Under the pieces are notes generated by a model. The model saw only the letters and a program-made list of their open reading frames with translations, did no database searches and was not told where the DNA came from. A program made the translations under genes and the position numbers. Positions 28,306 to 63,678 of a DNA stretch of 64,000 bases are shown here, one piece after another. Position 1 is the first letter of the stretch; each line of letters starts with the position of its first letter. The stretch is from an uncultured Erysipelotrichaceae bacterium (lineage in GTDB: Bacteria > Bacillota_I > Bacilli_A > RF39 > UBA660): contig CACWUS010000002.1 in assembly GCA_902764145.1 (NCBI GenBank), positions 69,493 to 133,492 on the forward strand, in the 5' to 3' direction.

Positions 28306-28337
28306 AAAAAAGAATTTTTATAATGGGTGATAGGTGT

Positions 28338-31229
28338 ATGAAAAAAAGAATGGGTTTTACATTAGTAGAGTTATTAGCAGTAATAGCAATTTTGGCAATA
28401 TTAGTAATTATAGCGCTTCCAAATATAATAGAAATGTTTAATAATGCTAAGAAAAGATTTTTCTATAATGAAATTAGAATAGTTTATAATACTGCTGAAG
28501 AAACATATATAAAAGATGCTTTTAGTAATTCTGGTATAAAAGTATATGCCAAGGGTGAAGATGGAACTAAATGTGCTAAAGAATTAGATATGAGTGATAG
28601 AGATGGTTTCTATTATTATATTTCTGTTGATAGCAGTGGTAAAGTTAATAAAATATATATAAAGGATAATAATTATCAGTATGTTTTAGAAAAAGAAGAT
28701 ATAAAAAAGAATGATATTTCATTTGATGATATTAAACCTTTATCAGAAGTAGAAAATATAATTGATATTACATGTGATGGTATTTTAGCAGATACTCCAT
28801 CAAGCGATAATGGAGTAACTATGTTTGTATCTGGTAAAACTTTAAATAAAACAATGAAAAAATTATCAGGTCAACAGAATTATAATTTAGATACATTTAA
28901 TAATAGTATAACTGCATTTAAAAGAAGTACTAATAGTAATGTACCTAATAATGCAGAAGTTGTATCTACTGAAAATTCTAAAAAAACTATATACATGTGG
29001 TATCAAAGTGGAACAATATATTATTATAGTGAAGATGATAAATTATATTTAAATGATAATAGTTCACATATGTTTTATAAGTTAAGAAGCCTATCTGATA
29101 TTGAGGGTATGAATTCTTTAGACACTTCAAGAGTAGTTAACATGCTAGCAATGTTTAGCGTAACTACTAATTTAAAATCACTAGAATGGAAAGATAGTTG
29201 GGATACTTCTAACGTAACTAATATGAGTCAAATGTTTACTAGTAGTGGTATCACTAATATGGATTTGAAAAAACTAAATACAGAAAAAGTTGCAAATATG
29301 TATTATATGTTTGCTGGAACTGAATTTTCTAGAATAGATTTAAGCAATTTTAATACAAAAAATCTTGTAGATATGGGTGGAATATTTAGTCAAAATTCAA
29401 ATCTTGTTGAAATTGATTTAAGTAGTTTTGATACATCAAAAGTAACAGATATGTCTGAACTATTTCATGGTGCAAGTAATATAACTAATGTAATTTTTGG
29501 TGATAATTTTAATACATCAAAAGTTACAGATATGGGATTTATGTTTGCAGGTGCTGAAAAATTAGAATCAATAGATTTAAGTAATTTTGATACATCAAAT
29601 GTAACTGATATGAGTTATATGTTCCATGGTTGTAAGAGTTTAAAGCAATTAGATGTAAGTAATTTTAATACGTCAAAAGTAACTAATATGTTAGATATGT
29701 TTAGTAGATGTGAAAAATTGACGCAACTTGATGTAAGTAATTTTAACACATCAAATGTTACAAACATGGCTGATATGTTTGAAGGATGTAAAAATTTATC
29801 ATCATTAAACTTAAGTAATTTTAATACATCAAAAGTAACATATATGCAATCTATGTTCTCTGGAAATACAAGTTTATTAGATATAAATTTAAGTAATTTT
29901 GATACATCAAATGTTACTAGTATGACATATATGTTTAATAATTGTGAAAATCTAAGGCAACTAAATGTAAGTACTTTTGATACAAAAAAAGTTACAGATA
30001 TGGAAAGTATGTTTGCTGGATGTAAAAACTTAACACAATTAAATTTAAGTAACTTTAACACATCAAAAGTAACAAATATGAAAAATATGTTTTATGAAGA
30101 TACTAATATAATATCTGTCAATTTAAGCAGTTTTAATACAACAAATGTAATAAATATGAGTAGTATGTTTTCTTTCGATGAAAGTTTAACCTCATTAGAT
30201 TTAAGTAGTTTTGATACATCAAATGTTACTAGTATGTCATATATGTTTTCTAAAAATAAAAGTTTAACTTCACTAGACTTAAATAATTTTAATACTCAAA
30301 ACGTTACAAATATGCAAGGAATGTTTAATGAATGTGAGAAGTTAACAACATTAAATATAAGTAATTTTGATACATCAAAAGTAACAAATATGAGAGAAAT
30401 GTTTAGAATGTGTCATAATTTATCATCATTAGATGTAAGTAACTTTAACACATCAAAAGTAACAAATATGAATAAAATGTTTAATGAATGTAAAAGTTTA
30501 TCATCACTAGACTTAAGTAGTTTTAATACCCAAAACGTTACAAACATGAATGGGATGTTTAGCGAATGTAAAAGTTTAACAACATTAAATGTTAGTAATT
30601 TTAATACTAGAAAAGTGACTGACATGGAAGAAATGTTTAAAATGTGCCATAATTTGTCATCACTAGATGTCAGTAGTTTCAACACAGAAAATGTTACAAA
30701 TATGAAAAAAATGTTTAATGAATGTAAAACTTTAACAACAATTAACTTAAACAATTTTAATACAAAAAATGTTACAAATATGAATTCAATGTTCTCTGGT
30801 AGTGATAACTTAAAAACATTAGATTTGAGTAGTTTTGATACAAGAAATGTTACTGATATGGGCGCTATGTTTAGAACTTGTGGTAAATTAGAAAATGTAA
30901 ATTTAAGTAATTTTACAACAGATAAAGTTAAAAATATGGAATCAATGTTTGCGGGATGCTTCAAATTAAAAACTCTTGATTTGAGTAGCTTTGATACAAA
31001 AAATGTTACTGATATGTCTTATATGTTTCTTTATAATTCACAATTAACTACAATATTTGCTAATAATTCAAAATTTAATACAACTAATGTTACTAAATCA
31101 GATAATATGTTTAATGGATGTAGTATTTTAAAAGGTGGAAATAATACTTCTTATGATTCTAGTCATATAGATAAAATATATGCTCGTATTGATAAATCTG
31201 GTTCTCCAGGATATTTTACAGCTAAGTAA
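28338..31229 (+). CDS. Type IV prepilin-like protein fused to about 25 BspA-type leucine-rich repeats
   Basis: MKKRMG/FTLVELLAVIAILAIL is a class III (prepilin peptidase) signal with Phe+1 and Glu+5. The C-terminal 650 aa are 22-23 aa repeats LxxLDLSNF(N/D)TSKVTNMxxMFxxCxxL. Confidence 0.75.
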   Translation: MKKRMGFTLVELLAVIAILAILVIIALPNIIEMFNNAKKRFFYNEIRIVYNTAEETYIKDAFSNSGIKVYAKGEDGTKCAKELDMSDRDGFYYYISVDSSGKVNKIYIKDNNYQYVLEKEDIKKNDISFDDIKPLSEVENIIDITCDGILADTPSSDNGVTMFVSGKTLNKTMKKLSGQQNYNLDTFNNSITAFKRSTNSNVPNNAEVVSTENSKKTIYMWYQSGTIYYYSEDDKLYLNDNSSHMFYKLRSLSDIEGMNSLDTSRVVNMLAMFSVTTNLKSLEWKDSWDTSNVTNMSQMFTSSGITNMDLKKLNTEKVANMYYMFAGTEFSRIDLSNFNTKNLVDMGGIFSQNSNLVEIDLSSFDTSKVTDMSELFHGASNITNVIFGDNFNTSKVTDMGFMFAGAEKLESIDLSNFDTSNVTDMSYMFHGCKSLKQLDVSNFNTSKVTNMLDMFSRCEKLTQLDVSNFNTSNVTNMADMFEGCKNLSSLNLSNFNTSKVTYMQSMFSGNTSLLDINLSNFDTSNVTSMTYMFNNCENLRQLNVSTFDTKKVTDMESMFAGCKNLTQLNLSNFNTSKVTNMKNMFYEDTNIISVNLSSFNTTNVINMSSMFSFDESLTSLDLSSFDTSNVTSMSYMFSKNKSLTSLDLNNFNTQNVTNMQGMFNECEKLTTLNISNFDTSKVTNMREMFRMCHNLSSLDVSNFNTSKVTNMNKMFNECKSLSSLDLSSFNTQNVTNMNGMFSECKSLTTLNVSNFNTRKVTDMEEMFKMCHNLSSLDVSSFNTENVTNMKKMFNECKTLTTINLNNFNTKNVTNMNSMFSGSDNLKTLDLSSFDTRNVTDMGAMFRTCGKLENVNLSNFTTDKVKNMESMFAGCFKLKTLDLSSFDTKNVTDMSYMFLYNSQLTTIFANNSKFNTTNVTKSDNMFNGCSILKGGNNTSYDSSHIDKIYARIDKSGSPGYFTAK
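29150..31060 (+). repeat. Tandem 66-69-nt coding repeats (LRR units)
   Basis: Recurrent AGTAATTTTAATACATCAAAAGTAACAAATATG... units. Their mirror image creates the spurious minus-strand ORFs 29615..30061 and 30413..30964. Confidence 0.8.
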
Positions 31230-33217: not shown

Positions 33218-33424
33218 AGTAAATCGATGATGTGGAGAAGTAACATATAAATTCTTTATAGAGAGTTAGTGTCTGGTGAAAACTAATAAGATATATATGT
33301 GAATAACACCACTGAGTGGAATGTCGAAATTAAGTAGACACTCACGGTTAATACCGTTATATAAATTAAGTAAATAAAGGGATGGTACCGTCTTATGACT
33401 CCTTGTGCCATTCCTTTTTATTTT
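33218..33424 (+). promoter_or_regulatory. T-box riboswitch leader (controls ASCH-asnS-aspS-gatCAB)
   Basis: Stem I AGAGAG...GGTGAAA elements. Distal AGTGGAATG. T-box sequence AAATAAAGGGATGGTACCGTC. Terminator GGATGG...CCATTCC plus TTTTTATTTT. Confidence 0.7.
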
Positions 33425-45247: not shown

Positions 45248-45985
45248 ATGAAATCATATTATCAAACAGACCCTGGTAAAGTTAGAAGCCATAATGAGGA
45301 TTCTGTTAATATAGTTGAGAACGATAGTGGAGAAGTCCTTGTTGTTGTAGCTGATGGAATGGGAGGCCATAAGGCTGGTGAAGTTGCTAGTTCTCTTGCT
45401 GTCAATGAATTAAGTCGAAGATTTAGTGAATTATCAAGTATAGGCAGTAAAGAAGAAGCAGTGGTTTGGTTAAAAGAGATAATAGATGAAGTTAATATAA
45501 AGATATTAAAATATGCAGAAGAACATGTAGATGCTTCTGGTCTTGGAACAACTTGTGTCTGCACAATTGTTACAAAAGATTTCTTACTATTTGGAAATAT
45601 AGGAGACTCAAGTGGCTATGTTTATAAAAAAGGAAAGCTATATAAAGTAACAAAAGATCATACACTTGTAAATATACTTCTTGAAAGTGGAGAACTTACA
45701 GAAAGTGCTGCTAAGATGCATCCACAAAAAAATGTTCTTATGAAAGCACTTGGCGTTGCAGAAAAAATAGAAATGGACATATTTGATGTTGAAAGAGATG
45801 TTGATGGTATTTTCTTATGCAGTGATGGTCTTACAAATATGATGACAGTAGAACAAATGGAAAAAATATTAAATGATAAAGAATTAGAATTAGAAGAGCA
45901 AGTTGGTAAAATGATTATGAAAGCCAATATGCGTGGGGGAACGGATAATATTACAATTGCATGTTTAAGATTCGGTGGTGAATAG
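45248..45985 (+). CDS. stp: PP2C-family Ser/Thr protein phosphatase
   Basis: VADGMGGHKAGEVAS, DGLTNM, GGTDNIT. Confidence 0.85.
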   Translation: MKSYYQTDPGKVRSHNEDSVNIVENDSGEVLVVVADGMGGHKAGEVASSLAVNELSRRFSELSSIGSKEEAVVWLKEIIDEVNIKILKYAEEHVDASGLGTTCVCTIVTKDFLLFGNIGDSSGYVYKKGKLYKVTKDHTLVNILLESGELTESAAKMHPQKNVLMKALGVAEKIEMDIFDVERDVDGIFLCSDGLTNMMTVEQMEKILNDKELELEEQVGKMIMKANMRGGTDNITIACLRFGGE

Positions 45986-47789
45986 TGTGATAGTTAAAGG
46001 TTCAAAAATAAATGATAGATATCAAATCATTAAAACATTAGGTGAAGGTGGAATGGCTAATGTATATTTAGCTCATGATACAATTTTAGATAGAAATGTT
46101 GCAGTTAAAGTTTTAAGAGGAGACCTTGCAAATGATGAAAAGTTTGTTAGACGTTTTCAAAGAGAAGCTCTTTCTGCTTCAAGTTTATCTCATCCTAATA
46201 TAGTTGAAATGTATGATGTTGGTGAAGATGATGGGCAATATTATATTGTTATGGAATATGTAGATGGTAAAACATTAAAACAAGTGTTGAAATCTCGTGG
46301 AAAACTTTCTATAACAGAAGTAATAGATATTATGCTTCAACTAACAGATGGAATGGCTCATGCCCATGATGCATATATTATTCACAGAGATATTAAGCCA
46401 CAAAACATAATGATACTTTCAAATGGTATGATAAAAATTACTGACTTTGGTGTAGCTGCTTCACTTAATTCAACACAGCTTACACAAACAAATTCAGTAA
46501 TGGGAACAGTTCATTATTTACCTCCAGAACAAGCTCAAGGAAAAGGTTCAACAATTAAAAGTGATATATATTCAATGGGTATAATGATGTATGAGTTATT
46601 AACAGGACTTGTTCCATATAAAGGAGATAATGCTGTAGAAATAGCATTAAAACATTTAAAAGAACCAGTTCCAAGTGTTAGAAAAGTTGATCCAACTATA
46701 CCACAATCTATTGAAAATATTATAATTCGTGCTACTGCTAAGAATCCTAAAAATAGATATACAGATGCTAGAAGTATGCATGAAGACTTAAAAACAGCTT
46801 TAGATGATTCAAGAAAAGATGAAAAAAAATATGTATATAAATATCCAGAAAACGATGGAGAAGAAACAAAAAAATTGGAAGCTACAAAAGAGGTAGTTAA
46901 AAAACAAGAAACTGCCAAAAAAGAAGACAAAGTAAAAAAAGTTGAGAAAGATATTGATGAAGATTTTTTAGATGATGATGAACCAAAGGGTAAAAAGACT
47001 TTAATAATTTTCTTAAGTATATTTGCTGCGCTTGCGCTTGTAACTGTAATTGTTATGTCTAAAATACTAGGAAACCTAGATGGTAATGAGAAAAAAGAAG
47101 TTCCAAATGTTTCAGGTAAAACAATAAATGACGCTACTAATGAATTACTTGATGTTGGATTTGATGTTGATCCAGAATATAAGTATGAAGCAAGTGAAAC
47201 TATAGAAAAAGGTTTAGTTGTTAGAACTAGTCCTGAAGGTGGAAAGACTAGAAAGACTAGTGTTAAAGTTATTCTTTATGTATCTAGTGGAGAGGCGACA
47301 TATATAGTAGAAGATTTTACTGGTCAAAATTACTTAGAAGCAAAAGGTAAAATTGAAGCACAATGTGATTGTAATGTTTCTGTTGAAACAGAAAAAGTAA
47401 GTGAAAAAGATAAGAAAAAAGAAGATACAGTTTTAAGAACAGAACCAGCAGCTGGAGAATCAAGCAAATTAGGTTCTCAAATAACAATTTTTATTCCAGA
47501 AGTAGAATATAAATATCCTGACTTTACAAGTGGATACACTGTAGATAAAGTAGAAAAATATGCAAAAGATCATGATATTAAATTAGAAGTAACTTATCAA
47601 GAAAATTCATCTAAACCAGAGGGTACAATTGTAAAACAAAGTAGAGCAGCTGGAAGTATTGTTACACCAGGCGCAACGCTTGTAATTACAGTAACTACTA
47701 AGCCAGAAGAAACAACACATGTTGATGATGAAGAAATACCATCACAAGATGTTGTTGATGATACAGAAGATAACAATTCAGGGGAGTAA
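45975..47789 (+). CDS. prkC: Ser/Thr protein kinase with TM and PASTA repeats
   Basis: GEGGMANVYLA, HRDIKPQN, DFGVA, single TM IIFLSIFAALALVTVIVM, extracellular PASTA-like repeats. Confidence 0.85.
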   Translation: MVNSVIVKGSKINDRYQIIKTLGEGGMANVYLAHDTILDRNVAVKVLRGDLANDEKFVRRFQREALSASSLSHPNIVEMYDVGEDDGQYYIVMEYVDGKTLKQVLKSRGKLSITEVIDIMLQLTDGMAHAHDAYIIHRDIKPQNIMILSNGMIKITDFGVAASLNSTQLTQTNSVMGTVHYLPPEQAQGKGSTIKSDIYSMGIMMYELLTGLVPYKGDNAVEIALKHLKEPVPSVRKVDPTIPQSIENIIIRATAKNPKNRYTDARSMHEDLKTALDDSRKDEKKYVYKYPENDGEETKKLEATKEVVKKQETAKKEDKVKKVEKDIDEDFLDDDEPKGKKTLIIFLSIFAALALVTVIVMSKILGNLDGNEKKEVPNVSGKTINDATNELLDVGFDVDPEYKYEASETIEKGLVVRTSPEGGKTRKTSVKVILYVSSGEATYIVEDFTGQNYLEAKGKIEAQCDCNVSVETEKVSEKDKKKEDTVLRTEPAAGESSKLGSQITIFIPEVEYKYPDFTSGYTVDKVEKYAKDHDIKLEVTYQENSSKPEGTIVKQSRAAGSIVTPGATLVITVTTKPEETTHVDDEEIPSQDVVDDTEDNNSGE

Positions 47790-51112: not shown

Positions 51113-51171
51113 AAAAAAGAAGTGTTTTAGTATTTCTATAGCTAATTATATTAATAGGAGGATAAAAAATG
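51113..51171 (+). repeat. Repeat R1: 58-nt 5' UTR module AAAAAAGAAGTGTTTTAGTATTTCTATAGCTAATTATATTAATAGGAGGATAAAAAATG
   Basis: Near-identical copy at 51953..52011. Core AAAAAGAAGTGTTTTA also at 63709. Confidence 0.8.
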
Positions 51172-51969
51172 AATAATAATATATTTGAACAAATTAAACA
51201 CACTGATGAAAACGGAAATGAATACTGGGAAGCTAGAGAATTGATGATAGTGTTAGATTACAACAAATGGGAAAATTTTCACAAAGTAATTAAAAAAGCA
51301 AAAAATACATGTATTAATAGTAATATTAATATTAATGAACACTTTCTTGACATCAAGAAACCGATTAAAGGTGGCAATGGAAATATTCAAAATGTGGTTG
51401 ATTATAAGCTATCAAGATATGCGTGTTATTTAATTGCACAAAATTCAGATTCAAGAAAAAAAGTGATTGCACTTGCTCAAACATATTTTGCTATCCAAAC
51501 TAGGCGACAAGAATTATTTGAAAAAGAATATAATTTACTTACTGAAGATGAAAAAAGGTTATATCAAAGAGGTTTGACTAAAAAAAGAAATTATTCATTA
51601 AATAAAACTGCTGCCTTATTAGGAGTAAAAAACTTTGGCAAGTTTCATGATGCAGGGTATATGGGATTGTATGGAGGTGAAACAGCAAATGATATTGCTA
51701 AAAGAAAAGAACTTAAATACAGAGAAGAAATACTTGATAATATGGGTAGTGAAGAACTTACTGATAATTAATTTAGAATTGTTCAAACAGAATCAATATT
51801 AAAAAAGATGATATAAAAGGAGAAAAAAATGCAAGTGCCACACATAACAAAATAGGAAAGATAGTTAGAAATGCAATACTTGAAGCAGGTGGAACTATGC
51901 CAGAAGAACTCTTGACACCTAACAAAAGTATAAAAGAAATAGAAAAAGATATAAAAAAAGAAGTGTTTT
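51169..51969 (+). pseudogene. dinD: dinD-like (DNA-damage-inducible protein D family) gene disrupted by an in-frame stop and a frameshift
   Basis: The 51169..51771 ORF (FEQIKHTDENGNEYWEARELM...YACYLIAQNSDSRKK...AQTYFAIQTRRQE) matches DinD as recalled. TAA at 51769. Homology continues after it in the same frame (FRIVQTESILKK). It continues in the +1 frame after the A-run at about 51801 (KDDIKGEKNASATHNKIGKIVRNAILEAGGTMPEELLTPNKSIKEIEKD). Confidence 0.5.
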
Positions 51970-52011
51970 AGTATTTCTATGGCTAATTATATTAATAGGA
52001 GGATAAGAATG
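51953..52011 (+). repeat. Repeat R2 (copy of the R1 5' UTR module)
   Basis: AAAAAAAGAAGTGTTTTAGTATTTCTATGGCTAATTATATTAATAGGAGGATAAGAATG. Two mismatches versus R1. Begins inside the dinD-like C-terminal coding remnant. Confidence 0.8.
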
Positions 52012-54081
52012 CTAAATAAAAAACATTTCGTTAAACAATCCGGTCTCAAAGATTGTGCATCTGCATGTTTACTCACTATTATGAATTATTATGGATTCAA
52101 CACATCACTAGATGAAGTATCATACATATTAAAAACAAATAATTCAGGAACAAATGCATTAAACATAATAAATGGATGCAAAGTATTTGGGTTTGATGGA
52201 TATGGAATACATTATAGTTATGAAGAAATAATTAATAATAAAGTTAATATGCCAATAATATGTCATACAATGAAAAATAATATGTTTCATTTTATAGTTG
52301 TTTTTAGTTCTAATAAAAAATATTTATTAATTAATGATCCCTCTTCAAATATAAATAAAATAACACATGATTATTTTAAAAAGATTTATTTAAATACTTC
52401 ACTTGTTATATATCCAATAAAGATACAAAATAATATTAATAGTAGTAAATCGTTATATAGTTTTATATTTGATTATATTAAATTAGAAAAAAATAAGATA
52501 ATAAAAAACATATTACTTTCATTTATGTTTATATTATTATCAATATTATCAAATTATTATTTATTAATAATATTAGATATTATTCTTCCCCAATATAATT
52601 ATAAATTATTTATATTTATAACAATTTGTTTTTTAAATATTTATATTATAAAAAATCTGTTATTTTTTTATAGAGAAAGAAGTACATTTTCTATTGAAAA
52701 TAATATATATAAAAAAATAAACTTAAATATTATAAATAGCATATTTAATCTTCCTTATAATTTCTTTAAATCCAAATCCACTTCAGAAGTACAAACTAGA
52801 ATTGATGATATTAAAATCATAAAATCATATTTATCTAAAACTATAGTTGCTATTAGTATGGATACTACTTTTATAATTATTAGCTCCCTAATATTAATAA
52901 GCATTAATATTAAATTATTTATCATTTGTTTAATAGAAATACTATTATACTTTCTTATATACTTATTGTTTAAGAATAATTATATAGTTAAATGTGAGGA
53001 GGTGTTAGAAAGTGAGAGTGAATATAATAAGCAATTATATGAAAGTATAAATGGATATGAAGTAAATAGAAATTTAAATATTATTAATGAGCAAAATAAG
53101 AGAGTTGAAATAAGTTTTATAAGATATATTAATAAAATAAATAATTATGAAAATATTACAAATAAAGAACTATTATTTAAAAAAATGATAGAAGATATAT
53201 TCTATATTAGCTTAATATTTATTGGAATTACATTTGTTAATAGTAATGATATAACATTAGGTAGTTTTATACTATTTAGTAGTCTTCTATATTATTTTAG
53301 TGAGCCCATTAAAAATATTATTGACTTAAAAAATAATTTGATATATTTGAAAAATGCCTATAGAAGAATAAATGATTTATTACTATTTAGAAAAGAAAAA
53401 ATGATAGTAAAAAAACAACAATTAAATAAAAATATTATTATTGATAATTTAAGCTATAGTATAGATGGTTTAAAATATTTATTTGAAAATGTTAGTTTTG
53501 AAATTAAATATGGTGAAAAATTATTAATATATGGTAATAGTGGAAGTGGTAAAAGTACATTAATAAAAATTATTCTAAAATATTTAAATGAATATAAAGG
53601 TAATATATATTTTGATAATGTTAATTTAAAAGATATAAGTGAATACGTAATAAGCTATAATTTTACATATGTATCTCAAAACAATTTTATTAATAATGAT
53701 ACACTTAAGAATAATATTATTCTTGATAGAAATGTTTCAGAAGATGAATATGAAAAAGTAATAAATATTTGTAATTTGAATAAGTTAAGAGATTCAAAAT
53801 TTAACAGAAATAATTTCATTATAGAAGATGATGGATTTAATATTTCTGGAGGAGAAAGACAAAAAATGATACTTGCAAGAAGTTTACTTAAAAAAAGTAA
53901 TTATATTGTACTTGATGAAGCATTAAGTGAAGTAGGATTTGAAGAAGAAAAAGATATAATAAACAAAATATTTGAGCATTTTAAAGATAAAACAATTATT
54001 TATATTTCACATAAAAAAGAAATAATTAATTTATTTAAAAACAAATATAAATTAGAAAGGAGTTGTGGTTATGTTAAGTGA
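52009..54081 (+). CDS. Bacteriocin-processing ABC transporter with N-terminal C39 peptidase domain (SunT/LagD/ComA-like)
   Basis: C39: GLKDCASACLLTIMNYYG (Cys), HFIVV (His), NDP (Asp). 6 TM. Walker A GNSGSGKST, signature ISGGERQK, Walker B IVLDEALS, H-loop. Confidence 0.8.
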   Translation: MLNKKHFVKQSGLKDCASACLLTIMNYYGFNTSLDEVSYILKTNNSGTNALNIINGCKVFGFDGYGIHYSYEEIINNKVNMPIICHTMKNNMFHFIVVFSSNKKYLLINDPSSNINKITHDYFKKIYLNTSLVIYPIKIQNNINSSKSLYSFIFDYIKLEKNKIIKNILLSFMFILLSILSNYYLLIILDIILPQYNYKLFIFITICFLNIYIIKNLLFFYRERSTFSIENNIYKKINLNIINSIFNLPYNFFKSKSTSEVQTRIDDIKIIKSYLSKTIVAISMDTTFIIISSLILISINIKLFIICLIEILLYFLIYLLFKNNYIVKCEEVLESESEYNKQLYESINGYEVNRNLNIINEQNKRVEISFIRYINKINNYENITNKELLFKKMIEDIFYISLIFIGITFVNSNDITLGSFILFSSLLYYFSEPIKNIIDLKNNLIYLKNAYRRINDLLLFRKEKMIVKKQQLNKNIIIDNLSYSIDGLKYLFENVSFEIKYGEKLLIYGNSGSGKSTLIKIILKYLNEYKGNIYFDNVNLKDISEYVISYNFTYVSQNNFINNDTLKNNIILDRNVSEDEYEKVINICNLNKLRDSKFNRNNFIIEDDGFNISGGERQKMILARSLLKKSNYIVLDEALSEVGFEEEKDIINKIFEHFKDKTIIYISHKKEIINLFKNKYKLERSCGYVK

Positions 54082-54202
54082 AGAAGAATTAAGAAGTATA
54101 CATGGAGGTTTTGCTAAAGGAGTTATAGTTAGTATAGCTAGTTATATTGTATCTTTTATAATTGGTGTATTTGATGGATATTATAGACCACTTGGCTGTT
54201 AA
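54071..54202 (+). CDS. Class IIb bacteriocin precursor peptide A (double-glycine leader)
   Basis: MLSEEELRSIHGG / FAKGVIVSIASYIVSFIIGVFDGYYRPLGC. Leader has L-12, E-8, L-7, I-4, GG. Mature peptide is hydrophobic with GVFDG (GxxxG). The ATG is 11 nt inside the 3' end of the transporter gene. Not in the ORF track (43 aa). Confidence 0.6.
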   Translation: MLSEEELRSIHGGFAKGVIVSIASYIVSFIIGVFDGYYRPLGC

Positions 54203-54203
54203 A

Positions 54204-54365
54204 ATGAATGAAATTGAACTATATAATATAAAAGGTGGCAGTACAATTAACTCAACTATGTTAAATGCTATTGTAAGAGCTTTTAATCTCTCTTTAGAAC
54301 TTGGAAGAATGCTTGGAAGTTATATTAGAAGAAAAAGAGATAAAAGATTATGTCCAATAAGATAG
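54204..54365 (+). CDS. Class IIb bacteriocin precursor peptide B (double-glycine leader)
   Basis: MNEIELYNIKGG / STINSTMLNAIVRAFNLSLELGRMLGSYIRRKRDKRLCPIR. Cationic mature peptide with GRMLG (GxxxG). The track's 54162 start is an N-terminal over-extension. Confidence 0.65.
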   Translation: MNEIELYNIKGGSTINSTMLNAIVRAFNLSLELGRMLGSYIRRKRDKRLCPIR

Positions 54366-54383
54366 GGAAAGCCCTATCTTTTT
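54361..54383 (+). terminator. Rho-independent terminator after the bacteriocin genes
   Basis: ATAGGGAAAGCCCTAT hairpin plus CTTTTT. Confidence 0.65.
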
Positions 54384-54402
54384 AATTGTTAACATTTAAA
54401 AG

Positions 54403-54430
54403 TTGACATATATTTTAATATTAGTATAAT
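54403..54430 (+). promoter_or_regulatory. Sigma-A promoter for the downstream ABC transporter pair
   Basis: TTGACA-16 nt-TATAAT. Confidence 0.6.
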
Positions 54431-54451
54431 TAATTAGGATTGAGGTGAAAT

Positions 54452-56206
54452 ATGTTAAATATATTAAAAAACTTTAATAAAAAAGAAATATTAGCAATAT
54501 TTATTTCATTCATATTTATAGTACTACAAGTATTTTTAGAGCTTAAAATACCAGATTATATGAGTAATATAACAACTCTTGTTCAAACTGGAAGTGAAAC
54601 ATCTAAAATATTAACTCAAGGTATATATATGCTTATATGTGCTTTTTTAAGTATGATTTGCGCTATTGTAGTAGGATATATAATTGCCAATAGCTGTTCA
54701 TCATTTTCTAAAAATATAAGAGAAAAATTGTTTAAAAAAGTTAGTTTGTTTAGTATGGAAGAAATAAAGAAATTTAATACAAGTAGTCTAATTACAAGAA
54801 CGACAAATGATGTTACTAATGTTGAATCATTTCTTATTATGGGACTTCAAACTATAATTAAAGCACCAGTTACTGCAGTATGGGCTATAATGAAAATACT
54901 AGGTAAGAATTTTACATGGACTATTATTACTGGTGGGGCAGTTGTTATATTATTAATTGGTGTAACTTTAATTATGACAACCGTATTACCAAGATTTAAA
55001 TTAATACAAAAAATGATAGATGGAGTAAATGAACTTACACGTGAAAATTTAAAAGGTATTAGAGTAATTAGAGCATTTAATGCAGAAAAATATCAAGAAA
55101 AGAAATTTGAACGTCAAAATGAAAAGCTTACAAATACTTTATTATTTACACAAAAAGTGATTGCTTTAATGTCACCAATGATGTATTTAATTATGAATGG
55201 TGTTGCATTATCTATTTATTTCTTTGGGGCATTTATAATAAATAATTCAGCAATTGAACTTAGAATTGATTTATTTAGTAGTATGATTATTTTTACTTCA
55301 TATGCTACACAAGTAATTATGTCATTTTTAATGTTTGCATTTATATTTGCTATGTATCCAAGAGCAGCTATATCTATAGATCGTATTAATGAAGTATTAA
55401 ATACAAAAACAAAAATTAAGAGTGGTAAACTAAGAAAATCTAAAACTAATCATGAAATAGAATTTATAAATGTAAGTTTTAAATATCCTGATTCAGAGGA
55501 ATATACATTAAAAGATATTTCATTTAAAGCACAGAGGGGTCAAATGATAGCTATTATTGGCTCTACTGGTAGTGGTAAAAGTACATTAATAAATTTAGTT
55601 CCTAGATTTTATGATGCTACTGAAGGAGTAATTCTAGTAGATGGTGTAAATATCAAAGAATATGATTTAGAATATTTATATGATAAAATTGGATATGTTC
55701 CTCAAAAAGCAGTTATGTTTAATGGAAGTGTTAATTATAATGTTTCTTATGGTAAAAAAGATAATTATAATATAACAGAAGATACAATAAAAGAAGCCAT
55801 TAAAGTAGCCCAAGCAGAAGATTTTGTACTTAAAATGGATAATACTTATGAATCAAATATTGCTGAAGGTGGCACAAATATATCAGGTGGTCAAAAACAA
55901 AGAATAGCAATTGCAAGAGCGATCGCAAGAGATCCAGAAATATATATATTTGATGATTCTTTTAGTGCACTTGATTATAAAACTGATTATATACTTAGAA
56001 GTGAACTTAAAAAATATACAAAAGATGCTATTAGTTTAGTAGTTGCATCTAGAATAGGTACAATAAAAAATGCTGATAAGATAATAGTTTTAGATAATGG
56101 TAAATGTGTAGGAATGGGAACTCATAAAGAATTACTTAAGAATTGTGAAGTGTATAAAGAAATAGCTTACTCACAACTATCAAAGGAGGAGCTTTTAAAT
56201 GAATAA
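54452..56206 (+). CDS. ABC exporter ATP-binding/permease protein (heterodimer partner 1)
   Basis: 6 TM. GSTGSGKSTL, ISGGQKQRIAIARA, IYIFDDSFSALD. Confidence 0.85.
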   Translation: MLNILKNFNKKEILAIFISFIFIVLQVFLELKIPDYMSNITTLVQTGSETSKILTQGIYMLICAFLSMICAIVVGYIIANSCSSFSKNIREKLFKKVSLFSMEEIKKFNTSSLITRTTNDVTNVESFLIMGLQTIIKAPVTAVWAIMKILGKNFTWTIITGGAVVILLIGVTLIMTTVLPRFKLIQKMIDGVNELTRENLKGIRVIRAFNAEKYQEKKFERQNEKLTNTLLFTQKVIALMSPMMYLIMNGVALSIYFFGAFIINNSAIELRIDLFSSMIIFTSYATQVIMSFLMFAFIFAMYPRAAISIDRINEVLNTKTKIKSGKLRKSKTNHEIEFINVSFKYPDSEEYTLKDISFKAQRGQMIAIIGSTGSGKSTLINLVPRFYDATEGVILVDGVNIKEYDLEYLYDKIGYVPQKAVMFNGSVNYNVSYGKKDNYNITEDTIKEAIKVAQAEDFVLKMDNTYESNIAEGGTNISGGQKQRIAIARAIARDPEIYIFDDSFSALDYKTDYILRSELKKYTKDAISLVVASRIGTIKNADKIIVLDNGKCVGMGTHKELLKNCEVYKEIAYSQLSKEELLNE

Positions 56207-58370
56207 TGAAAAAATAAATAGAAGGCCAGTAAGGCCACATGGACCAGCTGGAAGAGGAGCTCCAGGAGAAAAACCAAAAAACTTAAAAGAGGCAGTAAAA
56301 AAATTAATATTTTATTTAAAACCTTATAGATTTCTTATATTTTTAGCAATTATACTTGCTGCTTTAAGTAGCGTATTATCAATAATTGGTCCAGATAAAT
56401 TAAGAAATTTAACTGATGAAATTTCAAAAGGACTTGTAATCAATACTGAAAGTTTCGAATTAATAAAAGAAGATATTGATAAAGATATAAAAAATAATAT
56501 TATTATAAACGAGGAAGATTTGAATTCTTTAACTCCTGAAGATAGAGAATTATATGATAAAACAATATCTAATTTAAATAATTTAAGTGATGAAGATAAA
56601 TTTATATCAATAGTTAATTTACCAGCTTCTGTAAAAACATTAATATTTAAAGATAAAGAAATAAATGGAACTATTGTTACTAGTATGGATAAAGTAGAAA
56701 TATTAGATTTCATGTTAGTGGCTAATAGTGAAAATATGTATGATCAAATAAATATGTTGGATGATCATTTAAAAGATTTAATAAAACCTAAAATGGACTT
56801 AAATAAGATTAAAACAATTGCTTTAACATTAGTAATAATGTATGTTCTAAGTGCACTATTTAGTTATACGCAAAACTATTTAATGGTAAGAGTAGCTAAT
56901 TCTTTTTCTAAAACGCAAAGAAGAGACATTACTAGAAAAATAAATAATTTACCACTTAAATATTTTGATACACATAGTTATGGAGATATATTATCAAGAG
57001 TAACAAATGATGTAGAATCAATTAATATGTCACTTCATAATAGTTTAGGTTCTTTAGTTTCAGCAGTTGCATTATTAATAGGTTCACTTATTATGATGTT
57101 TAAAACAAATATAGTACTTGCTTTAATTAGTATAGCTTCTTCTTTAATAGGCTTTGTATTTATTTCAATTATTACCATGAAATCACAAAAATACTTTATA
57201 GCAAGACAAGATGAACTTGGTAAATTAAATGGTCATATAGAAGAGATTTATTCAAATCATAATGTAGTAAAAGCATATAATGGAGTAGAAGAGGCTAATA
57301 AAACATTTGATGAATATAATAGTGGACTTTATAATGCAAACAGGATGAGTCAATTCTTATCTGGTATTATGGGGCCAATGATGGGATTTGTTGGTAATAT
57401 TGGATATGTAGCTGTATGCGTAGTAGGTTCTGTATTGGTATTAAAAGGAACAATAACTTTTGGAGTAATAGTTGCATTTATAATGTATGTAAGATTATTT
57501 AGTAGCCCACTTACTCAAATTGCGGGTGCTATTCAAAATTTACAAACAGCAACAGCAGCTGGAGAAAGAGTATTTGAATTTGTAGAAGAAAAAGAATTAA
57601 AAGATGAATCACATATTACTAAGCATTTAGATCCAACTAAAGTAAAAGGTAACATAGAATTTAATCATGTAAAATTTGGTTATGATAAAGATAAAATAAT
57701 CATAAAAGACTTTAATTGTAAAGTAAAACCTGGACAAAAAATAGCAATAGTAGGGCCAACCGGAGCAGGTAAAACAACTATAGTAAATTTACTTATGAAA
57801 TTCTATGAAATAAATAGTGGTGATATTAAAATAGATGGAGTTTCAACAAAAGAATTAACAAGAGAAAATATTCATAGTTTATTCATTATGGTTCTTCAAG
57901 ATACTTGGCTATTTAATGGAACAATTAGAGATAATATCAAATTTAATAATGGAAGTATAAGTGATGAAGAAATATGGAATGCTCTTAGTGTAGTAGGGGT
58001 AGACCATTTTGTTAAAACTCTTCCAAAAACATTAAACTATAGAATAGAAGATAATGAATCTATTTCTAGTGGACAAAAACAATTATTAACAATAGCTCGT
58101 GGTATGATTGAAAATTCACCATTTCTAATTCTTGATGAAGCAACTAGTAGTGTTGATACAAGAACAGAAGAATTAGTACAAAAAGCTATGGATAAATTAA
58201 CAGAAGGAAGAACATCTTTCATAATTGCACATAGACTTTCAACAATTAAAAATGCAGATTTAATACTTGTAATGAAAGAAGGAAATATAATAGAAACAGG
58301 TACACATGAAGAATTACTTAAAAAGAATGGTTTCTATGCAGAACTTTATAATTCACAATTCCAAAATTAA
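56199..58370 (+). CDS. ABC exporter ATP-binding/permease protein (heterodimer partner 2, with about 150-aa extracytoplasmic insertion after TM1)
   Basis: GPTGAGKTT, SSGQKQLLTIARG, LILDEATSSVD. Overlaps the upstream gene by 8 nt. Confidence 0.85.
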   Translation: MNNEKINRRPVRPHGPAGRGAPGEKPKNLKEAVKKLIFYLKPYRFLIFLAIILAALSSVLSIIGPDKLRNLTDEISKGLVINTESFELIKEDIDKDIKNNIIINEEDLNSLTPEDRELYDKTISNLNNLSDEDKFISIVNLPASVKTLIFKDKEINGTIVTSMDKVEILDFMLVANSENMYDQINMLDDHLKDLIKPKMDLNKIKTIALTLVIMYVLSALFSYTQNYLMVRVANSFSKTQRRDITRKINNLPLKYFDTHSYGDILSRVTNDVESINMSLHNSLGSLVSAVALLIGSLIMMFKTNIVLALISIASSLIGFVFISIITMKSQKYFIARQDELGKLNGHIEEIYSNHNVVKAYNGVEEANKTFDEYNSGLYNANRMSQFLSGIMGPMMGFVGNIGYVAVCVVGSVLVLKGTITFGVIVAFIMYVRLFSSPLTQIAGAIQNLQTATAAGERVFEFVEEKELKDESHITKHLDPTKVKGNIEFNHVKFGYDKDKIIIKDFNCKVKPGQKIAIVGPTGAGKTTIVNLLMKFYEINSGDIKIDGVSTKELTRENIHSLFIMVLQDTWLFNGTIRDNIKFNNGSISDEEIWNALSVVGVDHFVKTLPKTLNYRIEDNESISSGQKQLLTIARGMIENSPFLILDEATSSVDTRTEELVQKAMDKLTEGRTSFIIAHRLSTIKNADLILVMKEGNIIETGTHEELLKKNGFYAELYNSQFQN

Positions 58371-61696: not shown

Positions 61697-61773
61697 GGTT
61701 ATATATATGAATATATAATCTTTTTAAATTCAAATTGATACAATGCACATTTTTATGTTATAATAATATTAAT

Positions 61774-63678
61774 ATGATAGATTGGAGTGTGATAATTTTG
61801 GGAATTGGTTTTTATTTATCTATTTCAATGATTCCTATTTTATTACTATTAACAATTATATTTTTTGTTAAAAAAAGAGTTAATAATGAGGAAACAAAAA
61901 TTTATAGTCATATTTTGATATCTTCAATAATAATGTCTATTTTCGAAGTCACATCAGCAATAATGTATAAAGAGTACTTTGGATTGTTGATTTATGATAT
62001 AGTTGCAAAATTAGTTTTAGTGTGTTATGTCGTAGTAAACTATTTGTTTTGTAATTATTTAATGACTATATGTAATAGGCCTAAGCCAACTTTTATATTG
62101 TTAAAAGTGATTACGATTGTTACATTATTACTCATGGCTTTTACTAAAACTATATATGTTGAGAATAATGGAGTAGTGGCACCTCAGGGAGGACCGATTG
62201 TTGCGACATTTGCTTATGCTATTTGTTTGGGACTATATCAATTAGTATTAGCTTTGTCAAATAGAAAAACAATTAATGCCAAAAAGTTCACACCATTTTA
62301 TTTATTCTTAGTATTTGGCGCTATTAATGCTATAATTGTTATTTTATATCCAACTTCTTTTGTCGTTGGATATATATGGTGTTTAACTATAATTACTATG
62401 AACTTCACAATTGAAAACCCAGATGCTAAACTTGTTGAGTATGAGAAGACTGAGAAGGAGAGAGCTGAAGCTGCTAGTATTGCTAAGAGTGAATTTTTAA
62501 GTAGTATGTCTCATGAGCTTAGAACTCCTTTGAATGCTATTGTTGGTTTAAGTGAAGATATTGAATCATTTAATGATAAAGTACCAAAAGAAGTTAAAGA
62601 AGATACTGTTGATATTGTTAATGCATCAAATACTTTACTTGAAATAATTGGTAGTATCTTAGATATAAGTAAGATTGAAAGTGGAAAGCTTGATATAGTT
62701 GAAAGTGATTATGCACCTAAAGATGAATTTGAAAGTATTGCTAAAATACTTAGAACTAAAGCAAGTGAAAAGAATTTAGAATTTAATGTATCTATTAGTG
62801 AAAGAATACCTGATGTATTATTTGGTGATAGACTTAGAATTAAACAAATTATTAACAATTTACTTTCTAATGCTATTAAATATACTGATCATGGTAGAGT
62901 AAACTTCTTTGTTAATTGGTTGGATGCTTCTAGTGCACTATCCATTACAGTAGCTGATACTGGTAGAGGTGTAAAACCTGAAGATATTGATAAATTGTTT
63001 AGCAAATATGATAGACTTGGTGTTGAGAAAACAAGTAATGTTCAAGGAACCGGTTTAGGTCTTGCTATTACTAAGACACTTATTGATTTAATGGGTGGAC
63101 ATGTAGAAGTTAAAAGTGAATATTTAATTGGAACAACATTTAGTGTAACAATACCTCAAAAACTTGGAGATGCTGAGAGACTTGAATCTATTAAGATGGC
63201 TCAAATGTATGTTCCTAAGGATTTAGACTTTAGTGGTAAAAAATTACTTGTTGTTGATGATAATTTATTAAATATTAAAGTGTTTAAGAAAGCTATTAAG
63301 GATTTAAATTTTGAAGTAGATGAATGTTATAATGGACAAGAAGCGCTTGATAAAATAGAACTAAATAATGATTATGATATTATATTTATGGATATTAAAA
63401 TGCCTGTTATGGATGGAGAAGAAGCAATTGGACATTTAATTAATATGCCAAACTTTAAAACTCCTGTAGTAGCACTAACAGCAGATGCAATGACAGGATC
63501 AAATAATAAGTATATTAATATGGGATTTAGTGATTATATGTCTAAACCATTCTCAAGAAAAGTTATAGCTGTAAAACTAGACACTATATTAAATAAAGGA
63601 GAAGTTGCTAATAAAAATTTAAATACTGAAGAAGAGAAGAAAGAAGAAACACAATCAGAAGAAGTTAAAGAATCATAA
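61774..63678 (+). CDS. Hybrid sensor histidine kinase/response regulator with polytopic N-terminal sensor domain
   Basis: 6-7 TM. HisKA FLSSMSHELRTPLNAIVG. HATPase_c (NLLSNAIKYT, GTGLGLAI). C-terminal REC (LLVVDDN...DIIFMDIKMPVMDG...K). Confidence 0.8.
   Translation: MIDWSVIILGIGFYLSISMIPILLLLTIIFFVKKRVNNEETKIYSHILISSIIMSIFEVTSAIMYKEYFGLLIYDIVAKLVLVCYVVVNYLFCNYLMTICNRPKPTFILLKVITIVTLLLMAFTKTIYVENNGVVAPQGGPIVATFAYAICLGLYQLVLALSNRKTINAKKFTPFYLFLVFGAINAIIVILYPTSFVVGYIWCLTIITMNFTIENPDAKLVEYEKTEKERAEAASIAKSEFLSSMSHELRTPLNAIVGLSEDIESFNDKVPKEVKEDTVDIVNASNTLLEIIGSILDISKIESGKLDIVESDYAPKDEFESIAKILRTKASEKNLEFNVSISERIPDVLFGDRLRIKQIINNLLSNAIKYTDHGRVNFFVNWLDASSALSITVADTGRGVKPEDIDKLFSKYDRLGVEKTSNVQGTGLGLAITKTLIDLMGGHVEVKSEYLIGTTFSVTIPQKLGDAERLESIKMAQMYVPKDLDFSGKKLLVVDDNLLNIKVFKKAIKDLNFEVDECYNGQEALDKIELNNDYDIIFMDIKMPVMDGEEAIGHLINMPNFKTPVVALTADAMTGSNNKYINMGFSDYMSKPFSRKVIAVKLDTILNKGEVANKNLNTEEEKKEETQSEEVKES

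Follow-up and report, generated by a model that had tools for sequence, protein, structure and literature searches.

A Candidate Two-Peptide Bacteriocin Operon with Conserved Single Cysteines in an Uncultured Erysipelotrichaceae Bacterium

Introduction

The DNA considered here is a stretch of 64,000 nucleotides, hereafter the window, from an uncultured Erysipelotrichaceae bacterium (assembly GCA_902764145.1, contig CACWUS010000002.1, positions 69,493 to 133,492 of the forward strand); it is very AT-rich, with a G+C content of 25%. Three genes at positions 52009-54365 of the window code for an ATP-binding cassette (ABC) exporter with a C39 peptidase domain and for two short precursors, named here pepA and pepB, and they probably constitute one operon responsible for the production of a two-peptide bacteriocin of the class IIb type. 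According to the proposed mechanism, the C39 domain would cut both precursors after Gly-Gly during export and thereby free a hydrophobic helix of 30 residues (peptide A) and a cationic amphipathic helix of 41 residues (peptide B), which would pack together in the target membrane through their GxxxG motifs and cause leakage. A membrane-protein receptor would probably mediate this action, as in other class II bacteriocins, and A and B, once exported, may be joined by a disulfide between their single cysteines.

Many putative class II loci surface in genome mining, and it is the paired cysteines of this one that are most worth an experiment. If the peptides are active, the locus would be an entry point to a large putative bacteriocin family that is abundant in gut microbiomes. 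A and B are short, unmodified and synthetically accessible, so that the linkage of the two chains, the survival of the producer and the role of a B-like decoy are all directly testable.

The Exporter-pepA-pepB Operon

The features of the putative operon, all on the forward strand, are the following.

51953..52008, + strand: conserved leader region 5′ of the exporter gene (alignment of six lineages)
52009..54081, + strand: peptidase-containing ABC transporter (PCAT), the exporter, 690 aa, with C39 peptidase, six-helix membrane domain and ATPase (Pfam)
54071..54202, + strand: pepA, 43-aa precursor with leader MLSEEELRSIHGG and mature part FAKGVIVSIASYIVSFIIGVFDGYYRPLGC (read from the sequence)
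54204..54365, + strand: pepB, 53-aa precursor with leader MNEIELYNIKGG and mature part STINSTMLNAIVRAFNLSLELGRMLGSYIRRKRDKRLCPIR (read from the sequence)
54359..54390, + strand: intrinsic terminator with stem AAGATAGGG/CCCTATCTT followed by a T tract (terminator scan)

The preliminary description of this DNA, made by reading the sequence alone, had reported two small open reading frames (ORFs) with double-glycine leaders behind a C39-peptidase ABC exporter, and both are confirmed at 54071-54202 and 54204-54365; they are the only ORFs with such leaders in the six frames of the window. In pepA, the leader occupies 54071-54109 and the mature part of 30 aa 54110-54199, while in pepB the leader occupies 54204-54239 and the mature part of 41 aa 54240-54362. 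The pepA gene was rightly described as having 43 codons and an ATG inside the 3′ end of the exporter gene, the last 11 nt of which it overlaps; a Shine-Dalgarno sequence (AAAGGAG) lies 8 nt upstream of this ATG. Given this overlap with its own ribosome-binding site, followed by a gap of 1 nt between the pepA stop and the pepB start, the exporter, pepA and pepB are predicted to be translationally coupled. The leaders share the residues E-8, L-7, I-4 and the double glycine. The full pattern that had been proposed, with Leu at position -12, stands for pepA, but pepB has Met at this position. The qualification of the leaders as textbook examples holds for the double-glycine motif and not for their length, which is 13 residues in pepA and 12 in pepB against a usual 15-30.

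The computed properties of the mature peptides agree with the complementary characters first ascribed to them. Mature A is hydrophobic (grand average of hydropathy, GRAVY, +1.21) and has one GxxxG motif (GVFDG) and one Cys, which is its last residue. Mature B is cationic (isoelectric point 11.6, with nine Lys or Arg vs. two Asp or Glu) and likewise has one GxxxG motif (GRMLG) and one Cys, located 12 residues past GRMLG. Average masses of about 3256 Da for mature A and 4765 Da for mature B are expected, and of about 8018 Da for a linked pair. With an alignment of 111 sequences as input, AlphaFold2 models B as one long helix spanning residues 17-46 of the precursor, with a mean predicted local distance difference test score (pLDDT) of 81.5 and a core at about 95. 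For P0099, a natural A-B read-through fusion modeled with no alignment, two long helices are predicted at low confidence (mean pLDDT 67).

The exporter has the Pfam domains Peptidase_C39, ABC_membrane and ABC_tran and aligns end to end with ComA (8hf4, E 4e-80) and PCAT1 (4ry2, E 2e-73), with which it shares the three-domain architecture and the catalytic and ATPase motifs; unlike the bacteriocin proposed here, the cargo of ComA is a pheromone and that of PCAT1 is the peptide CtA. In this alignment, the ATPase domain retains both Walker motifs and the signature motif, and the peptidase domain retains its presumed catalytic residues (Gln, Cys, His and Asp). The model TIGR01193 (peptide cleavage/export ABC transporter) scores the exporter at 362.9 bits, which is below its cut-off of 523.85 and leaves the protein outside the family as formally delimited, yet no other family scores higher, and the match extends over nearly the whole protein; the next-best NCBIfam match, the mycoplasma PCAT model NF045998, fits a divergent low-GC lineage. 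By its sequence, the exporter appears to have the residues expected of a working PCAT, and cleavage of the leaders, which are of the double-glycine kind recognized by exporters of this sort, is predicted.

The mechanically called ORF of the exporter is longer than the gene listed above, spanning 51979..54081 (700 aa). The true start is nevertheless placed at the ATG at 52009, because a Shine-Dalgarno sequence (AGGAGG, 51997-52002) lies 6 nt before it and the relatives are called at 690 aa; a start at this position accounts for the fact that an exact look-up of the 700-aa ORF gave no match. The region 51953..52008 is nearly identical from AAAAAAGAAGTGTTTT to AGGAGGATAAAAATG across the six lineages. 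At the other end, the hairpin of the terminator (54359-54380) includes the pepB stop codon and is the sole terminator-like site found by scanning 50.8-58.8 kb of the window; hairpins lie at the corresponding place in four relatives (L017, L002, L146, and L144). The terminator is predicted to end the exporter-pepA-pepB operon. A longer in-frame start of pepB at 54174 was rejected as an artefact of the conserved C-terminal codons of pepA: the frame of pepB relative to pepA varies among relatives, so that such an extension cannot be conserved.

Several relatives show irregularities in and around these genes. In two samples (L009, positions 278-2350, and L010), the exporter gene is broken by an in-frame stop and called as two proteins of 581 and 87 aa, although its tblastn alignment runs in a single frame and pepA and pepB are intact; this may reflect exporter decay or a recurring assembly error. 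P0099 (101 aa; L023, 892-1197) results from a gene call in which the TGA between A and B is read as Trp under genetic code 4, and looks like an annotation artefact of a very AT-rich contig. Upstream of the exporter, at 51169-51975 of the window, lies a BRO-N (DinD-like) gene with a frameshift near position 51800; an intact 267-aa homologue from L005 aligns to it in one frame with residues 1-211 and in another with residues 211-267. L017, L001, and L002 lack the gene, and its last ~18 nt (AAAAAAGAAGTGTTTTAG) are kept just 5′ of the exporter in every relative, which points to an ancestral gene that has been repeatedly lost.

Conservation and the Wider A/B Peptide Family

When 5.8 billion proteins were searched, pepB retrieved eight clusters of close relatives with identities of 64-100%, and rumen or gut metagenomes were the source of all eight. 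Their gene order, rsgA, rpe, exporter, 43-aa gene, 53-aa gene, and ABC pair, is that of the window, and the 11-nt overlap between the exporter and pepA is preserved. The locus also occurs in one species representative out of 185,579 genomes (L017), a metagenome-assembled genome (MAG) labelled “uncultured Tenericutes bacterium.” Across six lineages with 64-93% peptide identity, both genes are unchanged in length, and the ratio of nonsynonymous to synonymous substitution rates (dN/dS) ranges from 0.04 to 0.24 in pepA and from 0.11 to 0.28 in pepB, dS itself often exceeding 0.7. From this constancy of length and these low ratios, pepA and pepB are judged to be real genes under strong purifying selection.

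A word-indexed search with pepA retrieved only two close relatives; it was the profile search with pepB that revealed a wider family. Scored exhaustively against 1.84 billion representative proteins at a threshold of E ≤ 1e-3, the pepB profile returned at least 157 family clusters at 50% identity, nearly all of whose members have 49-57 residues and match end to end. Their signature consists of the end of a double-glycine leader, x(3-5)-[ST]-x3-N-[AS], and then [ED]-x-G-[RK]-x-x-G-S-x-I-R-R-x(6)-C, and both Gly of the GxxxG motif are at least 90% conserved across 111 B relatives. In the A-like peptides, a double-glycine leader precedes a mature part that is hydrophobic, has about 30 residues and ends in …F-x-I-G-V-x-D-G-Y-x-R-P-L-x-C; the GxxxG motif is present in 78 of 79 of them, and pepA matches the family A profile at E = 5e-18. 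Distinct A+B pairs were compiled to the number of 79. The family, which is found in rumen, human gut and activated sludge, among other habitats, includes a human-gut variant in Clostridium sp. CAG:433 that is recorded as “unknown” and is carried by about a thousand contigs; other records name the relatives “bacteriocin-like protein” or “hypothetical protein.” A literature search on the sequence motif and on CAG-433 found nothing relevant to the family. By their sequences, the two peptides belong to a large, uncurated A/B family of low-GC gut and rumen Bacillota. The preliminary description had named a lack of homologous double-glycine-leader peptides in related loci as grounds for abandoning its reading; such peptides are clearly there, and the pair is conserved well beyond its own lineage.

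Metagenome loci were gathered with a degenerate DNA pattern of the B motif, which is biased toward AGA-rich, AT-rich family members; the counts from the at least 120 loci obtained in this way therefore describe a sample of the family. B-like peptides are encoded in 101 of these loci, and their surroundings, among the matches listed, are as follows.

A-like gene directly upstream of B: 91 of 94 loci
PCAT exporter upstream: 59 of 63 loci
Between exporter and A, a gene for a protein of about 140 aa that has a membrane helix at its N-terminus: 26 of 63 loci
Membrane protein of 45-60 aa, its gene overlapping the B stop: 37 of 95 loci (about 40%)

The third of these, a protein of about 140-150 aa (in L027, L033, L122, L132, L137 and others), is encoded by a gene that overlaps the 3′ end of the exporter gene; it matches no Pfam family and might serve as a small accessory protein or in secretion. 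The rpsU gene (ribosomal protein S21) follows the peptide module in 25 of the 77 family loci listed (among them L025, L027, L029, L033, L038, L041, L137, L138, and L143), which points to a second conserved chromosomal site in several lineages, unlike the rpe-ABC site of the window.

Conserved Cysteines and a Candidate Immunity Protein

The preliminary description had noted a cysteine at or near the end of both peptides, and this feature turns out to be conserved in the family. Among the profile matches of B, which provide the unbiased figures, at least one Cys occurs in 117 of 118 mature peptides and exactly one in 96, and the alignment of 111 B sequences shows no exception in the Cys column. 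Exactly one Cys is also found in 74 of 79 A relatives, and 60 of 65 A/B pairs have exactly one in each partner; conservation in the metagenome loci is partly circular, since the filters for A-like and B-like ORFs demanded a C-terminal Cys. In all 65 B peptides, the Cys stands precisely at position +12 counted from the second Gly of GxxxG, a spacing that is itself unbiased because the filter allowed 9-15; in A it stands at position +7 from that Gly. To our knowledge, a Cys at a fixed distance from GxxxG is not a feature of characterized class IIb peptides.

A lone Cys held in fixed register from GxxxG in both partners suggests that the two thiols meet and, since each peptide has a single Cys, any disulfide must join two chains. 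The fixed register thus suggests, as its simplest reading, an inter-chain disulfide between A and B; a requirement for a reduced thiol is equally possible. No bacterial two-peptide bacteriocin with its peptides joined by a disulfide was reported in the literature searched. Gallocin A of Streptococcus gallolyticus is also a two-peptide bacteriocin from the gut in which cysteines matter for activity, but its disulfides are reported to be intramolecular and to lie inside each peptide (PMC10100652), whereas A and B have only one Cys each.

The small membrane protein of 45-60 aa (in L137, L143, L047, L086 and others) bears on the same question. Its gene usually begins 10 nt upstream of the B stop codon, and the protein has a basic N-terminus, one membrane helix and the motif G-x3-G-[ST]-x2-R, with a Cys 12 residues after this motif in many cases (12 of the 19 immunity-like proteins that have a Cys). 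The C-terminal halves of this protein and of B are homologous (hhalign 95%, E 2.7e-8, in a set enriched by a motif filter). Such resemblance makes it likely that the 45-60-aa protein is an immunity protein acting as a membrane-anchored mimic of B. A fuller scenario, to be taken as possible but rather doubtful, is that A and B form a disulfide-linked heterodimer against which sister lineages are protected by the Cys-bearing decoy of B, the latter having been lost in lineages such as that of the window, which would then need another means of self-protection.

Comparison with Class IIb Bacteriocins

Class IIb bacteriocins such as lactococcin G, plantaricins EF and JK, and the lactobin A/cerein 7B group (PMC2850506, the review from which the class criteria were taken) resemble the present locus in several respects. 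They are encoded by two adjacent genes for precursors with double-glycine leaders, are exported by a C39-ABC exporter, have a GxxxG motif in each peptide and are helical, one peptide being hydrophobic and the other cationic. At 52009-54365, the two peptide genes are adjacent, 1 nt apart and before one shared terminator; MLSEEELRSIHGG and MNEIELYNIKGG are both double-glycine leaders; a dedicated exporter predicted to cleave them is encoded next to them; and a GxxxG motif, which in the class may be replaced by AxxxA or SxxxS, occurs in both mature peptides (GVFDG and GRMLG). The helices of A and B are predicted. The pepA precursor also matches the NCBIfam class IIb model TIGR03949 (lactobin A/cerein 7B) with 23.5 bits against a cut-off of 21.5 (E 3.6e-5, profile positions 4-45 of 45), as do 30 of 51 A relatives at E ≤ 0.01. 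It scores 20.6 bits with NF038034 (lactococcin G-beta/enterocin 1071B), for which the cut-off is 37. Searches of the Protein Data Bank (PDB) with profiles retrieved no structure related to mature A or mature B; the matches were confined to leaders, those of CtA (the substrate of PCAT1) and pre-carnobacteriocin B2.

Other observations weigh against a class IIb bacteriocin operon. By definition, class IIb operons include an immunity gene, and their leaders usually have 15-30 residues (PMC2850506), whereas the leaders here have 13 and 12 and the operon has neither an immunity gene nor the accessory protein of about 140 aa. The absence of a small immunity gene behind pepB had already been noticed, and indeed the 86 nt that separate pepB from the downstream ABC pair have room for no ORF. 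A displaced immunity or accessory gene was also considered and rejected, as profiles of the relatives' proteins gave no significant match in any frame of the 64-kb window. The class IIb signature originally proposed is thus borne out by the paired double-glycine-leader peptides, the GxxxG motifs, the PCAT and the TIGR03949 match, and not by the immunity gene expected in the operon. Moreover, the margin of pepA with TIGR03949 is only 2 bits and is partly driven by the leader, the match taking in the leader and a generic segment rich in Gly, Ala and Ile. No Pfam or NCBIfam family, TIGR03949 included, is matched by pepB; among 111 B relatives, 11-15 match generic bacteriocin models weakly, the figure for TIGR03949 being 15. 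A promoter scan found no high-scoring site on the + strand in 51953..52008 upstream of the exporter. Throughout the clade, the locus keeps one and the same syntenic position in the chromosome, which makes it steadier than many bacteriocin islands. Finally, an anaerobic habitat makes a disulfide uncertain.

The Downstream ABC Pair

The terminator is followed by a second transcription unit, as stated in the preliminary description, the scans and the Pfam matches agreeing on its fresh consensus promoter and its pair of ABC genes.

54403..54430, + strand: sigma-70 promoter TTGACA-16-TATAAT, a 12/12 match and the only one in a scan of 50.8-58.8 kb
54452..56206, + strand: ABC1, 584 aa (Pfam ABC_membrane, ABC_tran)
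56199..58370, + strand: ABC2, 723 aa, its gene overlapping that of ABC1 by 8 nt (Pfam ABC_membrane, ABC_tran)

The promoter probably serves this ABC operon and would stand outside the bacteriocin unit. In ABC1, Walker B ends in “DD” with no catalytic Glu, and Ser replaces the switch His, while ABC2 has a deviant signature motif, ISSGQ; by these motifs, the two proteins are predicted to form a heterodimeric half-transporter pair with one degenerate ATP site. The pair resembles the LmrCD, BmrCD, and TM287/288 type in its two half-transporters with overlapping genes and one degenerate ATP site, but ABC2 differs from that type by an insert of about 130 residues. The insert is rich in D, E, N and K and lies between TM1 and TM2, and the family models align ABC2 only from about residue 170-200.

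Homologues of ABC1 number in the thousands; the best 120 share 66-100% identity and have 570-586 aa. Four relatives illustrate the surroundings of the pair.

L144 (ABC1 76% identical): PCAT-A-B module adjacent but inverted; marR upstream of ABC1
L151 (73%): PCAT-A-B module adjacent; marR upstream of ABC1
L146 (69%): PCAT-A-B module adjacent; marR upstream of ABC1
L148 (67%): marR and ABC pair in a different neighborhood, with no PCAT or peptide genes

A comparison of 54366-54451 of the window with 5437-5570 of L146 and 6430-6570 of L151 shows that a marR gene (MarR family, 147-151 aa) lies between the same promoter and ABC1 in L146 and L151 and is missing from the window, L017, and L002. Its loss in the lineage of the window would leave the consensus promoter to drive the ABC pair directly and without repression, which would fit a recruited protective role. 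The ABC loci adjacent to a PCAT-A-B module lie in a syntenic region that extends from prkC-rsgA-rpe through genes for an AMP-ligase and a kinase. On this evidence, the ABC pair is probably a separate resident efflux operon, adjacent to the peptide genes by inheritance, that has lost marR.

Alternative Explanations

The preliminary description had suggested that the ABC pair could provide immunity or export. In its strongest form, this reading keeps the same bacteriocin operon and makes the pair its functional partner, which would replace the immunity gene by pumping the peptides out of the producer membrane and would be constitutive owing to the consensus promoter and the loss of marR. Its appeal lies in the adjacency of the two units, kept in all lineages of the clade that were examined, including L144 with its inverted bacteriocin genes, in the perfect promoter that directly drives the pair in the marR-less lineage of the window, and in the fact that no lineage with an adjoining ABC pair carries the gene for the small membrane protein. 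Yet a terminator and a separate promoter split the two units, and the syntenic flanks imply that adjacency was perhaps inherited rather than selected. The pair neither follows the peptides through their family nor is confined to loci that have them: it lies downstream of B in one of the 42 listed family loci with at least 2.5 kb of flank, 56 of the 58 listed loci without the small membrane gene also lack it, and in L148 marR and the pair occur away from any PCAT or peptide gene. In L139, ABC1 is more conserved than the peptides (74% vs. about 50% identity), as for a housekeeping gene. The ABC-based bacteriocin immunity known to us is of the LanFEG type, not of MsbA-like half-transporter pairs. 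The suggestion is therefore weakened by an operon that appears independent, widely conserved and, in relatives, regulated by marR, and we regard a self-protection role of the pair as unlikely.

Two further readings concern the peptides themselves. Signals secreted by a PCAT, such as the quorum-sensing pheromones of the ComC/BlpC type, have double-glycine leaders as well, and the closest solved exporter is ComA; a chromosomally stable locus with no immunity gene and with a hybrid histidine kinase about 7 kb downstream (61735..63678) would suit such a function. However, more than 100 loci include none with an adjoining sensor kinase or response regulator, about 40% of the family loci listed have the immunity-like membrane protein, and the mature peptides, almost always paired, are long (30 and 41 aa) and resemble membrane helices with GxxxG. 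Only one of 51 A relatives and one or two of 111 B relatives match pheromone models, and weakly. A role as signals instead of toxins seems very improbable. The least probable reading considered is that A and B are independent one-peptide bacteriocins that share an exporter without acting in synergy. Several unrelated cargo peptides are encoded in many PCAT loci, synergy is not readable from sequence, and B occurs with no adjoining A in three of the 94 listed loci. In the other 91, A precedes B with coupled translation, and the complementary characters of the pair, a hydrophobic and a cationic helix with one GxxxG and one Cys in fixed register each, together with the match of pepA to a class IIb model, argue for two peptides that work as one. 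A two-peptide bacteriocin encoded by the exporter-pepA-pepB operon hence remains the probable interpretation of the locus.

Annotation and Host

The family has practical consequences for annotation. No curated model in Pfam or NCBIfam exists for pepB-type genes, and a pepA-type gene, with its 43 codons, is easy to overlook. Public gene callers do annotate the 43-aa pepA in related contigs.

Two properties of the host were considered and rejected. A wall-less Mollicute, which would be intrinsically immune, is at odds with the PrkC with three PASTA domains encoded in the window and with the genes for penicillin-binding proteins (PBPs), VanY and sporulation in relatives, and genetic code 4 is at odds with long ORFs that are intact under table 11. 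The PrkC-type Ser/Thr kinase is encoded at 45975-47789 in an rlmN-prpC-prkC-rsgA-rpe cluster. Elsewhere in the window, a protein of 968 aa (28323-31229) has nine DUF285 (“Mycoplasma”) repeats and LRR-like matches, and a T-box leader is found at 33218-33406. Together with the PBP and sporulation genes of the relatives, these features point to a walled low-GC member of the Bacillota, despite the “Tenericutes” label of the related MAG.

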